Origin: Eledone cirrhosa
Lineage: Eukaryota
NCBI GenBank assembly: GCA_964016885.1
Contig: OZ024743.1
Location: forward strand, 42,780,001 to 42,844,000
Direction of reading: 5' to 3'
DNA length: 64,000 nt
Shown here: positions 9,177 through 63,819 of the stretch, one piece after another
Layout: every line of letters begins with the position of its first letter
Numbering within the stretch: position 1 is the stretch's first letter
Made by a program: the position numbers and the translations under genes
The notes under the pieces: model-generated
Database searches by the model: none
Seen by the model: only the letters and a program-made list of their open reading frames with translations
Told to the model about the DNA's origin: nothing

Positions 9177-9369
9177 ACGAAGGAGGTGTGGTAAGGAACC
9201 AGATGGACCATAACGCACCAGAGTACTCAATAATTAAGGTGGTAGAGTGGGTAATAGAAAAAAACGTGACACCGACGGCAGAGCTCAAGCCATCTCGACG
9301 GCTATTTCAGTCCAGAAATAGCTGTCGAAACGGCTTGAGCTCTGCTGTCGGGGTCACACTTTTTTCTAT
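9177..9369. mobile_element. ~190-bp fold-back mini-element between TA tracts (hairpin 9254-9369)
   Basis: Imperfect palindrome; homologous to 56410-56610 and 58141-58341. Confidence 0.8.
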
Positions 9370-9991
9370 ATATATATATATATATATATATATATAAATA
9401 TAAATATACACGGGTGTGTATGATTGTGCATAGAAGATTATATTAATTAGTTTGCAATTTTCAACGGTTGAAAATTGCAAATTTGACTGTCACCACTGAA
9501 TATGATCTTGAAGATTGCGAAAGCATGAAAGAACTTATTCAGTTAACACTTAACATTTGATATTCTACCATACTATTTCATTATAATATCATTATAATTT
9601 TAAAGGATTGTAAATAAAACGAGTAAATCAGACAAATTTGGAATTCCTTTAATTAATATATATATATATATATACATATATATATATATATATATATATA
9701 TATATATATATATATATATATATATATATATATATATATATATAGAACACATATTTTACCTGCTACATTCTACTATACATTGTAACACGTGGATATTCTA
9801 TTTCATTAGATATTTGGTAATAAAATGTTTAAATATAATCTTTAGACAGCGGCTCAATCGTTGATGTTGTATAAAGAAACTTAAAAACTATTATACAAGC
9901 TTGAAGCGCACTCTGTGATATACAAATAAAATAAAAAATAGATGCAAATTTCCAGTTGGTTAGTTCAATAACATGATGGATGGTTATTTAT

Positions 9992-10036
9992 TGTCAAAGC
10001 TCTTCCGTCACACATTTTATGACGTCCTCAGTGACA
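9992..10036 (-). ncRNA. Degenerate minimal hammerhead (Neptune-like pLTR)
   Basis: Minus strand: TGTCA-CTGAGGA-C-GTCATA(AAATG)TGTGAC-GGAA-GAGC-TT-TGACA; homologous to 15138-15182, with GAAA changed to GGAA. Confidence 0.65.
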
Positions 10037-10087
10037 TATTTGTTGTTTTGTGTCTCTCCTTCGTCCTGTGCTTCAACATCAACTGTA

Positions 10088-10182
10088 TTTTTATTGGCAG
10101 CCTAAGCCTCCCAAAGTATAACAATATCTGTTTCAACACGTTTTCAGAGGAAACATTTCCCAAACAAATTCAAATACGAAGT
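10088..10182 (+). mobile_element. PLE pLTR end including a decayed ORF start
   Basis: Encodes [11 protein letters not shown], matching [13 protein letters not shown] at 24783; ends in (TA)n. Confidence 0.7.
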
Positions 10183-10255
10183 ATATATATATGTCCCAAG
10201 GCTCTGATAGCATCAACACCATAAACACAGAGCTGGCATATCTAACAACTGACTA

Positions 10256-10311
10256 ACTGCCTGATGAGGTCATAGCCATTCAATGGCTATCATCGAAATA
10301 TATATAGCAGT
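10256..10311 (+). ncRNA. Type I hammerhead with palindromic (UA) stem III
   Basis: ACTGC-CTGATGA-GGT-C-ATAGCCAT(TCA)ATGGCTAT-C-ATC-GAAA-TATATA-TA-GCAGT. Confidence 0.85.
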
Positions 10312-10884
10312 AAATAAAGGATTATGAGTTCATGTAATTGACTTATGTTTCGTTACTATATATATATATATATATATATATATATATATATATATATATA
10401 TATATATATATATATACACACACACACACACTCACGCACTCACGCACACACACATGTATATATATATATATTATATTACATGAAAGAATACTAGTATTTG
10501 AATACGCAAACTTAAGTTAAATTGCTGAGTGATGTCTAGAATTAACCATAACAAAATTTGTTTTCTATTCTTTTGAAAGATGTCACTTTGAATAAAAATT
10601 GGAAATCGATATGAGTAAAGAATACAATAAATAAGTTGATACAGTTTTTTTATTTTACTATTTTGTTGGTGTTGTTGAATTTGCCTCACGCCGACAAAAG
10701 AAAAGATAATATTAATTTCAGTTGTCTTCTTTTAGTATTATAAAATTGTTATATCCTATATTTTCCTCTCATATCCACTCTTAGAGTTCATTGCCATATA
10801 GGAACTGAGTACATTTCCACCTCAACGATCGCTTTATATCCGGATCTTCATTTACTCTCATCTGCTTTCTATCTTCAAAGCAGC

Positions 10885-60117: not shown

Positions 60118-60257
60118 TATATATTTTGAAGTGTTCATTACATTACAGGGTACAACGCGAGTCCTTTACTCCGTTGCTTTATATGTATATATATATATAT
60201 ATATATATATATATATATATGTATATATATATATATATATATATATTTATTAAAATA

Positions 60258-60333
60258 ACAGATTAAAGTTTAAGCAAAGAATCGCTGCTTTCACCCTTAA
60301 CGGGATCTTCTGAAACTAACAAAGTCAATCTGT
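60258..60333 (-). ncRNA. Variant type I hammerhead (core CAGAAGA)
   Basis: Reverse complement of 63370-63445. Confidence 0.7.
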
Positions 60334-61248
60334 AAACGCAGAACTGGATATTTCAAAAAACGTTGCAACTGGAGGAAGACAGGAAGGCGATACTTTGGTT
60401 CGTGGAAACGTTCGCTGGCTAAGAACGGGAAAAAACGAATATAATACGTCATTAATAGGAGCGGTGAAAAACAATTACGCGCAAAGACAGAACCACGTTT
60501 ATGGTATAATAGAGGTCGTAGACTAATGTTCTCTTAGGTGGTGCATAGAGACGTTCTCTGGCGATGAACGAAAAAACGAAGATAATACGTCATATGTGGA
60601 TCGTGGAGAACAATAGCACGCAAAGAGAAAACCACGTAAATGTTATAGCAGAAGTCGTAGACTAAATTCTAACTTGGAGACCGAATAAGTCTCCGCTACG
60701 GAGTTAAGAACAAAGTAAATAAATACAATACAGAAGTAATAGAAATAAATAAATACATACACGCAAACAGAAACGTACATACACAAGCATACGCAAAAAC
60801 TTACCATAGGTAAACAAAACCACGCACATATAAAAATGTGTGTGTGTGTAAGCGTGTATACAAATAAATAAATAATTATATAAACGTATATAAATAAATA
60901 AATACGTATATAACAAGCGCACACACATACCTACATGTAAATACACGAATGTTCGGAGACGTAAGTCAACCAAAACATGAAGTACACATATACACACGCC
61001 CTATATACGTACGAACCTACATACTCACACAGACGCAAAACTCCCGTATACACATAGCCGAACCATATGTACCAGAATATATAAAAAAATTATACGCCAT
61101 AACAATCAAATATACGTACGAGAAGGTATACATGCCTTCACAAAACATACGGTTAATATATACATACCTATGCAAATAAGTAAAGGTATAAACAAAACAT
61201 ATACTTAGCTCCCACATCGAGACGTAAAATATCCACGTATAGATGGTA

Positions 61249-63137
61249 CTATCCGTTAGGGTATAACGTCGGGCTGTAATACAGGAAAGTTTTGTGAAAT
61301 TTATGTTTACAAGCCGAAATTGCCTCAGATTTTTTGTTTAAGATGTGGTCTGTGGCGTAGAGTATTTCGAGGGCCTCGGCGGCGCAGAGGTCACATGGTC
61401 TTTTATTTCCGTTATACGATCTAGCCCTCGCTAGGATCTCCCAGTGTAACTTATATTGGGTGTGGTTGTCTATTAGACTCCAGATATAAGCTGAAAGTGA
61501 CGTCATATTCCTTCTTAGAGGGTAACGAAAAGAATGAGTATGCATGTAAAGACGCTGCTTGAATCTATTGGCGGTTAACCCTATGTAGGCCCTACGGGAC
61601 GTGGGTGGTACAACCTTACATTTGTAGACAATGTTACTGGAGAGGCATTTCCCGGATAGGGGGCAATCAACCCGATTCCTACAATTACAGTTATTACTAA
61701 CTACAGGGTTGCACGTGTTCCTACGGCTAGGTAGTTTAGCTAAATTTGAAGCTGTGATGTTATGTGCAAGGTTAGGAGTCGTAGAGTAAGACATTTTAAT
61801 AGTATTTCTATTAAAAAAATTACTATATTTATCTGTAGGGGGAAAATGCTTCGTAATAAAGGGAAAGAAAGATCTTAGCTAATGGTGTGACCACCTCCAT
61901 ATTATATGGTGGGTTATACCAACAAATGCGACGGGATCTATTTCTTCTAGGTCTATTTTCGTACTCTGTATATGCTAACTTATCGACAAATCCACTTCGA
62001 GCAAGAGCTTCATTGTAATAAGTGGAATGGTCATTGAAAATACGTTCGTTGGTGGAAAGACGGGAAAGCCTCAACGAAACGTTTCTTACCAGGTTCTTGG
62101 TTATGCTAGCAGGATGGTTGGAATTCTTACTTATGTAATTAAGCGTATCATTCGGCTTCCTATACGGGTAATACAACCCATTCAATAAGTTGAAGGTATC
62201 GTCGAGGTAATTAACGACCGAGAGATTGGCCTCAACCTGTATAGAGAGGTTGAAGCCTTTAAAGAAGGCTGTGAGTTCTTTTCTGAACCTGTCGCAAGCA
62301 CGAGGTCCGCACTTAGTCATGGTCAAAAGACCATCGTCACGGTACAAACCGCCGCCCGCGTTGGGGAATTCGTCCTTAATAGAGAAAAGAAGGAAAAGGC
62401 CGATAAGACCAGTAACCTCCGCAGAATCACTGGCGCCTATACTTACGTCGAATGGGGTACTATTGGATTTTTTAATCCAAATAGAGTCGTCGAAATTAAT
62501 CACCGACTTACGGGCATTGAGGATGACATCAACTTCGAAATCCTTAACCACTGTGAATGTTTTAGCGAAATTGATAGCTCTAAGGAGAAGTGATAAAGTG
62601 ATGGAGGAGTAGTAATTGTTGTTGTCGAATTGGATAAAACGGCAATGTTCCTTGTTACATATGCCGTTGAACCAATCAATCACCGCGAAGGAATTGTTCC
62701 ACAGTCCAAGAGGGACCAAACTTCTAATTTCAGGTAAAATTCTATCAAGAATCGTCTTACTAAGTCTACCTAAATCGGACTTCGTAGGGTTAATAAGCCG
62801 AATAGAGGGGTTGTTCGGAAAATTGGATTTGCGATCCTTCAGGGAATAGTGGGGAGAAATAGGGTCCAGAGGTTCGGTCCGGTCCAGGATGTTGAGATCA
62901 GATGTGACTTTAAACCCAGCATCGTTGATTTCATTGATGACGCACCGATTAGTTTTACGGTAATCCTTAGTTACAGCATTATGTAGTAGTTGATGGTAAC
63001 TACTGCGCTACACTTGATATAGGTTGCCAGTTTTGACGGAATGGACGTGCTCGGCATTAGAATCCTTAATAGAACGAATTCTATTCTTCAGGTCAAGCTG
63101 GAAGGAATTGCTCCTATTCCGAAATTTGATACTCCGA
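61249..63137 (-). pseudogene. Naiad RT + GIY-YIG ORF with a stop and a frameshift
   Basis: RLINPTKSDLG, FIQFD..YYSSI, GLYRDDGL, WYNPPY, CNCRNRVDCPLSGKC, IVYKC..YIG, CDLC, LNKKSE. Confidence 0.92.
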
Positions 63138-63369
63138 ATCGCCAGAGAACGTCTCTATGCACCACCTAAGAGAACATTAGTCTACGACCTCTATTATACC
63201 ATAAACGTGGTTCTGTCTTTGCGCGTAATTGTTTTTCACCGCTCCTATTAATGACGTATTATATTCGTTTTTTCCCGTTCTTAGCCAGCGAACGTTTCCA
63301 CGAACCAAAGTATCGTCTTCCTGTCTTCCTCCGGTTGCAACGTTTTTTGAAATATCCAGTTCTGCGTTT

Positions 63370-63445
63370 ACAGATTGACTTTGTTAGTTTCAGAAGATCC
63401 CGTTAAGGGTGAAAGCAGCGATTCTTTGCTTAAACTTTAATCTGT
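63370..63445 (+). ncRNA. Variant type I hammerhead (core CAGAAGA)
   Basis: ACAGATTGA[CTTTGTT]AGTTT-CAGAAGA-TCCC(GTTAA)GGGT-GAAA-GCAG(CGATTCT)TTGC-TT-AAACT-TTAATCTGT. Confidence 0.72.
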
Positions 63446-63819
63446 TATTTTAATAAATATTTACTCTACGGTTCTTATATATTTGATATATATTTATCCT
63501 TATCGAGCCCTCTTTGGATTTTAGTCTTCAAATTTATTATTATTACTATATATATATATATAAATACACATCTTATACACACCATGCATCTCAACGTACA
63601 CCCACTTACATCTCTCTCTCCACCACCGGATCTTGTTACCCGGAGATTTATCCATTTGCATTGTCGAGGCTTCCAAACGACTTAAAGATATTTACTTATT
63701 ATTCCACAATGCTTCAAGCAAACTTCAATACTCTCATATATATATATATATATATATATATGTGTGTGTGTGTGTGTGTGTGCGTGTGTGTGTGCGTGCG
63801 TGTATGGTGGGTATATTTG

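Follow-up and report, generated by a model that had tools for sequence, protein, structure and literature searches.

Head-to-head insertions of two Penelope-like element families with both 3' ends in (TA)n microsatellites of Eledone cirrhosa suggest priming from both ends of the target

We analysed a 64-kb window of the Eledone cirrhosa genome (the whole stretch from position 42,780,001 to 42,844,000 of contig OZ024743.1; coordinates below count from its first letter), in which a Neptune-like Penelope-like element (PLE) lies as two arms fused head to head, with the 3' end of each arm pointing outward into an (AT)n repeat. The composite consists of the following parts.

20046-20301, no strand: (AT)n target on the left side, a tandem-repeat tract
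20300-23499, minus strand: inverted, 5'-truncated arm with its 3' end outward (left)
20300-20342, minus strand: 43-nt tail of the minus arm
23497-23499: head-to-head junction, at which 3 nt (CCA) match both arms
23497-24851, plus strand: partial tandem copy (pLTR), continuous into the full copy
24809-28935, plus strand: full unit of 4127 nt, ending at site 0 (...CAATAT) beside (AT)n
24783-28421, plus strand: open reading frame (ORF) of 1212 aa, open from its ATG
28682-28709 (plus strand), 24555-24582 (plus strand) and 20569-20596 (minus strand): hammerhead core motif, CTGACGA-stem II-GAAA
28932-28993, no strand: (AT)n target on the right side

This arrangement, which we call tail-out, agrees with an earlier reading of the window made from its letters alone (hereafter the sequence-only reading), which had reported the layout for a Neptune-like element at 20301-28935 with both 3' ends in (AT)n. 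The arms are 99.8-100% alike, and on the 3' side the minus arm exceeds the plus copy by 43 nt, reaching ...AAAACTA, and the 43 extra nucleotides are exactly the sequence that follows site 0 at the tandem junction, indicating that the template RNA reads through the unit boundary. This extra piece is the 'tail' of published PLEs.

The ORF motifs of both families treated here were read by eye, and the clade names (Neptune-like, and Hydra-like for a second element described below) are based on motif patterns rather than on a tree. In the Neptune-like ORF, Pfam gives a weak RVT_1 match under the cut-off (E 6e-5, 23.3 bits) and no GIY-YIG match, Pfam searches with whole ORFs returned nothing useful, and the best matches of a PDB sequence search with the ORF are defence reverse transcriptases (RTs; E 0.16-0.2). 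A GIY-YIG block (VVYSIRC...YIGET...R) can be read in the ORF, and among its 51 homologues the distant ones carry PF00078 and PF01541, while the closest named one is a predicted protein of Octopus vulgaris (68% identity). By these motifs and the weak RVT_1 match, a single ORF appears to hold both RT and GIY-YIG, as in endonuclease-containing (EN+) PLEs, and the partial tandem copy with an adjacent inverted, 5'-truncated copy is also a feature of that group. The linker that precedes GIY-YIG in the Neptune clade (CX2-5CxxC) reads C-TNRK-C-II-C, a linker that Nematis has in common with that clade, and the CCHH motif inside the Neptune GIY-YIG is represented by two Cys between VVY and YIG with several His after them. 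An asparagine-rich low-complexity insert occupies residues ~255-440 of the ORF (window 25500-26100). All three Neptune-like 3' regions of the window hold the hammerhead core with a 6-bp stem II; Rfam returned no match in the window at the gathering threshold and none at E<=1 on 23400-29000, where the hammerhead core went unscored. Canonical-looking hammerhead cores (CTGAnGAG...CGAAA) also stand at 10261-10298 and 15143-15171, and an ORF at 14152-14937, 72% similar to the 3' coding part of the Neptune-like element, ends near an (AT)n tract at 15395-15429; judged by these motifs, the two cores and the ORF are older PLE remnants.

Insertions of EN+ PLEs have been described as an inverted 5'-truncated copy, a pLTR, a full copy and an optional tail at one end, in a (TA)n target (Craig et al. 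2021, PMC8557442; Arkhipova et al. 2013, PMC3846280; both cited throughout from the parts of their text that were available). The Neptune-like composite shares with them the inverted copy by the upstream pLTR, the partial tandem, the one-end tail, the (TA)n or AT-rich target and a putative hammerhead core, as well as a pLTR that spans the first ORF codons and the N-rich ORF insert, the latter being reported in rotifer Penelope elements (PMC3846280). Set against the available text, our elements show no difference in kind; their tails measure 43/58 nt in the Neptune-like family and 89 nt in the second family, compared with the published 30-40 nt. The inverted 5' segments and microsatellite association of PLEs, which the sequence-only reading had taken as known, are indeed in print (PMC8557442, PMC3846280). 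The same text also covers the pLTR, the 5'-truncated copy in inverted orientation, the tail on one side only, the preference for (TA)n, the N-rich inserts and the trouble that such structures give to assemblies (PMC8557442, PMC3846280). To this our analysis adds tail-out counts for young families (21 of 28 loci and 15 of 21), a nearly strict one-tail rule for each composite and statistics on the junctions.

Censuses of both families were made in the E. cirrhosa assembly (3.0 Gb, chromosome-scale contigs) on the 40 best-scoring of 504 Neptune-like and of 731 Hydra-like candidates. With the last 436 nt of the Neptune-like unit as the query, the 40 scored candidates gave 41 matches of 97-100% identity, and 29 loci were retrieved with their full surroundings and mapped onto the unit. 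Two of these loci (L047 and L048) share one junction within a duplicated segment and were counted as one, leaving 28 independent loci. The results show that 21 of the 28 are tail-out (a minus arm followed by a plus arm), none is tail-in and seven are single. The 21 comprise 20 evident composites and an apparent single (L045) with a 19-nt minus arm that starts at +43. The full form seen in the window, with the inverted arm, the partial tandem and the full copy, also occurs at L035, L033 (mirrored) and L055. The sequence-only reading, which had proposed that (AT)n is cut on both strands and that each end primes its own cDNA, had named random arm orientations as an outcome that would refute it; with 21 tail-out against 0 tail-in Neptune-like loci, the orientations are not random.

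The outer ends of the Neptune-like arms follow a simple pattern. Across 30 own-genome loci the 3' ends fall only at 0, +43 and +58, with (TA)n after each; measured from the ORF start, these points are at 26, 69 and 84 nt, and each falls on a TA or TAT in the template. In both families (TA)n adjoins all the outer 3' ends that were looked at, more than chance would give with a (TA)n share of ~6% in the 64-kb window (summed tract rows). A site-0 end (to within 7 nt) is paired with an end at +43 to +59 in 20 of the 21 composites; no composite has both arms at 0, and all seven singles end at 0. Tail arms often end within the tail, and arms shorter than 90 nt make up 7 of 38 tail arms vs 1 of 33 site-0 arms (both families pooled, Fisher p = 0.06). 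Target duplications of ~66 nt (L041) and ~28 nt (L049) have non-repeat sequence in the duplicated stretch, and such long duplications point to widely staggered cuts that leave 3' overhangs; they are clear at only these 2 of 28 loci and masked by (TA)n elsewhere.

At the Neptune-like junctions the arms abut with no (TA)n in between, and in all 20 composites mapped they stop at different element positions, 32 to ~3000 nt apart, with none of the 20 junctions palindromic. Junction microhomology, which the sequence-only reading had listed among its checks, is 3-8 nt long in 12 of the 20, compared with 4.6% of junctions sharing at least 3 nt under a simulated blunt-join null (binomial 9e-12). Four of the remaining junctions share 0-2 nt and four carry fillers of 2-16 nt, and the fillers of L036 and L051 are templated A-B-A-B duplications of both sides, which is a signature of alternative end joining or template switching. 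Comparable marks occur at the 5' ends of three singles: L044 has a snap-back of 12 nt, L046 a direct duplication of 8 nt and L038 a filler of 17 nt. Within composites the two arms differ at 14 sites, vs 36.9 expected from arms of other loci (15 composites, without L055), and the overall arm divergence is 1.2 per kb within a composite vs 2.7 between loci. An inverted repeat of the flanks is lacking in 20 of 21 composites, and such unlike flanks are not what a mirrored assembly artefact or fold-back copying beyond the repeat would give.

The second PLE of the window, near its right end, has the same layout.

60180-60250: (TA)n tract bordering the minus copy of the Hydra-like PLE at its 3' end
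60243-63137, minus strand: 5'-truncated copy of the Hydra-like PLE, its ORF frameshifted, with the 3' end at site 0
63138-63547, plus strand: inverted Hydra-like arm, followed by a short (TA)n
63461-63547, plus strand: 89-nt tail of the plus arm

For the stretch 60246-63545, which the sequence-only reading had called a Naiad, the tail-out layout with both ends in (TA)n stands, and the Naiad label has to be dropped. In a full copy elsewhere in the assembly (L061; 3267-nt unit, 690-aa ORF) the RT comes first and the GIY-YIG (IVYKCKV...AYIGLT) is C-terminal, ruling out a Naiad identity for the element at 60243-63547, as Naiad is defined by an N-terminal endonuclease (PMC8557442). Hydra-clade PLEs have a C-terminal endonuclease without CCHH, a CxCX5C linker and a (TA)n target (PMC8557442). 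Our family targets (TA)n, its linker reads C-N-C-RNRVD-C, its GIY-YIG core has one Cys and no CCHH, and the CxxC and CxH of the Hydra clade around the conserved E and N read PCDLC...E and N...CKH. It departs from that clade in having DKP in place of DKT and in its unit length of 3267 nt, compared with <3 kb, and 'Hydra-like' is on these motifs a safe label. A motif scan and Rfam found no canonical hammerhead in the Hydra-like element, which also counts against full membership of the Hydra clade, and Rfam at E<=1 on 59800-63650 gave only hairpin-like microRNA matches attributable to chance.

Among the Hydra-like loci, 15 of 21 are tail-out and 6 of 21 are single or tandem only. The ends fall at 0 or +89, with one of each in 12 of the 13 composites whose two ends are known, and four tail arms stop within the tail. 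The earlier statement that paired arms usually have different 3' end points is thus borne out in both families (20 of 21 Neptune-like and 12 of 13 Hydra-like composites). An additional end point at '+37', suggested by BLAST, was rejected; alignment resolved these cases as site-0 ends followed by (TA)n, at which BLAST had overrun into the AT-rich tail.

Further Hydra-like sequence is present in the window. A single arm lies at ~29723-30296 beside (TA)n at 29349-29799, a 139-141-nt tandem repeat occurs in the Hydra-like 3' region at 29946-30274 and 60408-60665, and a ~25-nt fragment of the Hydra-like 3' end (20081-20105) sits inside the (AT)n that took the Neptune-like composite. Elsewhere in the assembly, (TA)n-seeking repeats of different kinds are stacked in the same microsatellites (L069 from 2109; the flanks of L039 and L040). 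At L069 a Hydra-like arm is followed by a (TA)n run and then by a Neptune-like tail end, and another repeat, ending ...GTGTTACACCTCTATTCTTTTAA, lies beside (TA)n at two loci.

We propose that cutting of both target strands, with the element RNA then copied into a separate cDNA from each 3' end, is the probable origin of the tail-out, head-to-head form. Such double priming is favoured because of the 21:0 orientation count, the direct junctions with microhomology or templated fillers, the unlike flanks and the long target duplications at two loci. The endonuclease would cut the self-complementary (TA)n on both strands in a staggered manner; reverse transcription would begin at site 0 from one end and 43-89 nt farther toward the RNA 3' end from the other, and the different start sites would leave a tail on one arm only. 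Both cDNAs would stop at arbitrary points, and their 3' ends would be joined via microhomology annealing or a template jump, with subsequent fill-in. The sequence-only reading had applied cutting of both strands and priming at each end to all the cases in the window and had called it the dominant route. For the two autonomous families it is the best fit, and tail-out loci predominate (21 of 28 and 15 of 21); for the small hairpins described below, a fresh event behind every copy is doubtful, as one-arm variants shared between copies point to inheritance of the entire hairpin in at least some of them.

In the twin priming of L1, reportedly described by Ostertag and Kazazian in 2001, both ends of a staggered break prime cDNA and a microhomology join gives an inversion; the second primer is said to anneal inside the same RNA, with the inverted piece upstream and the 3' end present once. 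Our proposal resembles L1 twin priming in that both DNA ends would prime and the cDNAs would be joined by microhomology. The products differ, because both PLE arms start at the 3' terminal region and the 3' part is therefore present twice.

For the Poseidon element PAc of the green anole, target-primed reverse transcription in vitro cuts and extends both strands and prefers AT-rich DNA (Frangieh et al. 2024, PMC11167929). Poseidon has two internal RNA start sites shortly past the start codon, and the spacing between them equals the tail (PMC11167929). The in vitro result supports both-strand cutting and priming at internal start sites, and the start sites of the Neptune-like family, 26, 69 and 84 nt into the ORF, likewise lie shortly past the start codon. 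Our families differ from Poseidon in that the end points fall on TA or TAT of the template and in that paired arms start at different sites. Inverted copies are not discussed in PMC11167929, where the word 'inverted' occurs once, for a blocking nucleotide. We found no paper that links cutting and priming of both strands to inverted arms, with supplements outside the search, and a double-priming model may stand in Pyatkov et al. 2004, Evgen'ev and Arkhipova 2005 or Arkhipova 2006. Among the repeats surveyed in Octopus vulgaris are recently active PLEs, whose structure goes unmentioned in the part of the text that was available (PMC13282606).

Several observations weigh against priming from both ends. 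Poseidon start sites have no homology to the cut DNA and are the same on both strands in vitro (PMC11167929). Both censuses are non-random samples, being made of the best-scoring candidates. The one-tail rule is broken at L055 (58/43), which also has the most divergent Neptune-like arms (8/964 sites), and at L060 among the Hydra-like composites (89/89). L047 and L048 share the same junction and have right ends at 0 and +45, indicating that the tail can differ or be lost after insertion. Three Hydra-like singles have the tail and three lack it, showing that 'site 0 first' is not general. The arms of Hydra-like composites are no closer to each other than to arms of other loci, although arm identity is uninformative in this older family, in which most differences postdate insertion. 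In Logan contigs of four runs (X1, X5, X9 and X10) both arms of the window composite are covered, and its junction at 23497 is bridged by none. Lastly, in a family of 197-bp hairpins that shares the layout, variants found in one arm only are common to 5, 4 and 2 copies.

Pairs of the 0/0 or tail/tail kind are almost lacking, which suggests that the two primers are not independent; a single RNA offering two start sites, with one use of each, might account for this pattern. More speculatively, both cDNAs might be copied from one RNA held by a protein dimer. We regard it as a tentative possibility that one RNA is copied twice by a dimeric ribonucleoprotein, with one DNA end engaged at site 0 and the other on the still single-stranded RNA just 3' of it. 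The tail would then be the footprint of second-end priming, and double-ended target-primed reverse transcription would be the default mode of PLE integration at (TA)n.

The window also holds smaller inserts between (TA)n runs.

9167-9402, plus strand: diverged copy (81%) of the 197-bp hairpin family
18815-20046, no strand: 1.2-kb insert between (TA)n runs, with inverted termini of ~65-90 bp
19872-20046: right-hand module of the 1.2-kb insert, a repeat with at least 1038 candidates
56411-56607, plus strand: 197-bp hairpin between two (TA)n runs, with a long arm bearing an 80-nt one-sided extension and a short arm
58142-58338: duplicate of the 197-bp hairpin
59842-60179, plus strand: imperfect palindrome of 283 bp (84%; 59842-60124) plus a 55-nt extension of the right arm to 60179, with two (TA)n runs around it

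The sequence-only reading had grouped three hairpins of ~200 bp, the stretch 18824-20046 and, as probable, 59842-60180 with the PLE composites. The layout is confirmed for the hairpins and for the palindrome with its one-sided extension between (TA)n runs, and the 1.2-kb insert does lie between (TA)n runs. The assignment to PLEs fares less well, as the 197-bp hairpin, the 59842 palindrome and the 18815 insert show no similarity to either PLE unit, the inverted termini of the 18815 insert span only ~65-90 bp, and the 197-bp hairpins form a family of constant structure. The hairpins at 56.4 and 58.1 kb are alike because of a local tandem duplication of ~1.7 kb (96%; 56363-57323 / 58094-59037 and 57406-58124 / 58992-59716) and do not count as two cases. 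The small cases have the layout in common with the PLE composites, and their PLE origin is putative. The chances are about even that these small inserts are instead non-autonomous repeats in which the hairpin is part of the copied unit, the founding hairpin having perhaps arisen once. The 197-bp family has at least 4110 candidates, and all 40 scored copies span the full length and end identically; the 23 aligned copies agree in their outer ends, have (TA)n on both sides and bear the 80-nt extension on one arm. The one-arm variants shared by several copies, together with only two paired changes in the family, both in the diverged copy, suggest whole-hairpin copying for at least some copies, and the lack of similarity to either PLE unit also fits this explanation. 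Pulling the other way, the palindromic centre takes 16 forms in the 23 copies, differing in sequence and length, and short templated duplications occur in several of these forms, the arms being 94-97% alike; this suggests that every insertion makes the joint anew. Complementarity holds for all 55 majority stem pairs of the 23 copies, and the relatives in the older 59842 family are mostly single arms and only sometimes hairpins. The 175-200-nt end module of the 18815 insert has a second, shorter inverted arm at 7 of 14 retrieved loci. The 197-bp family is not a terminal-inverted-repeat element or miniature inverted-repeat transposable element with inverted repeats at both termini, since its left 80 nt are unpaired at the right end.

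For the PLE composites themselves, self-priming, in which one cDNA, or an antisense template, folds onto itself and is copied into an inverted arm, seems unlikely. Such self-priming was inferred for rotifer Penelope elements from palindromes at inverted junctions (PMC3846280), and the true palindromic centre of the 197-bp family, a 72-nt mini-palindrome at the Hydra-like locus L068 and the 12-nt snap-back at L044 are what it would leave behind. The Neptune-like junctions look different, however, with no palindrome among 20 and arm stops far apart. Fold-back would also mirror the tail, whereas the outer ends differ in 20 of 21 Neptune-like composites; all seven singles are tailless, and the flanks are unmirrored in 20 of 21.

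It is more improbable still that the composites arose by two independent insertions, with a second copy landing in a microsatellite that already holds an older one, beside the 5' end of the latter. Independent insertions do occur: L039, one of the seven Neptune-like singles, has an 85%-identical older arm 150 nt from its young arm, old fragments lie near L043, L053 and L055, and L070 holds two Hydra-like composites with only a short (TA)n between them. The departure of L055 from the one-tail rule and its 8/964 arm differences probably reflect the same process. Random orientation would, however, give equal numbers of tail-in and tail-out loci, against the observed 21:0, and the arms abut with no (TA)n between them, though (TA)n is the target of the endonuclease. 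The arms of one Neptune-like composite are, moreover, closer in source than arms across loci. As for an assembly fold-back artefact, the unbridged 23497 junction in the Logan contigs of the four runs and the known difficulty of assembling inverted PLE structures (PMC8557442) speak for it, but it is highly improbable given 37 composites (21 Neptune-like and 16 Hydra-like, including the two in L070) each with its own junction, unequal arm lengths, unlike left and right flanks (checked in the Neptune-like family) and chromosome-scale contigs.

Two further observations concern the wider setting. Near-identical Neptune-like words are found in runs X1-X10, labelled as six organisms and a seawater metagenome, with a very high depth in X5. 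In the window, the direct repeat pairs 36292-39254 / 52197-55154 (96.4%) and 42494-46221 / 48457-52177 (92.9%), with ORFs of the long-interspersed-element type (RVT_1, Exo_endo_phos), are an interleaved duplication of two non-long-terminal-repeat elements.

The papers of 2021 and 2024 ask for mechanistic work on the tandem and inverted structures, the tail and the microsatellite bias. The Neptune-like family of E. cirrhosa is very young, with copies 99-100% alike, an open 1212-aa ORF and dozens of fresh insertions, and its junctions can be taken as a record of the reaction. They yield testable rules, namely that about three quarters of insertions are tail-out, that each pair carries one tail and that the joins show microhomology or are templated. 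Repeat annotators will misname such composites as terminal-inverted-repeat elements or split them.

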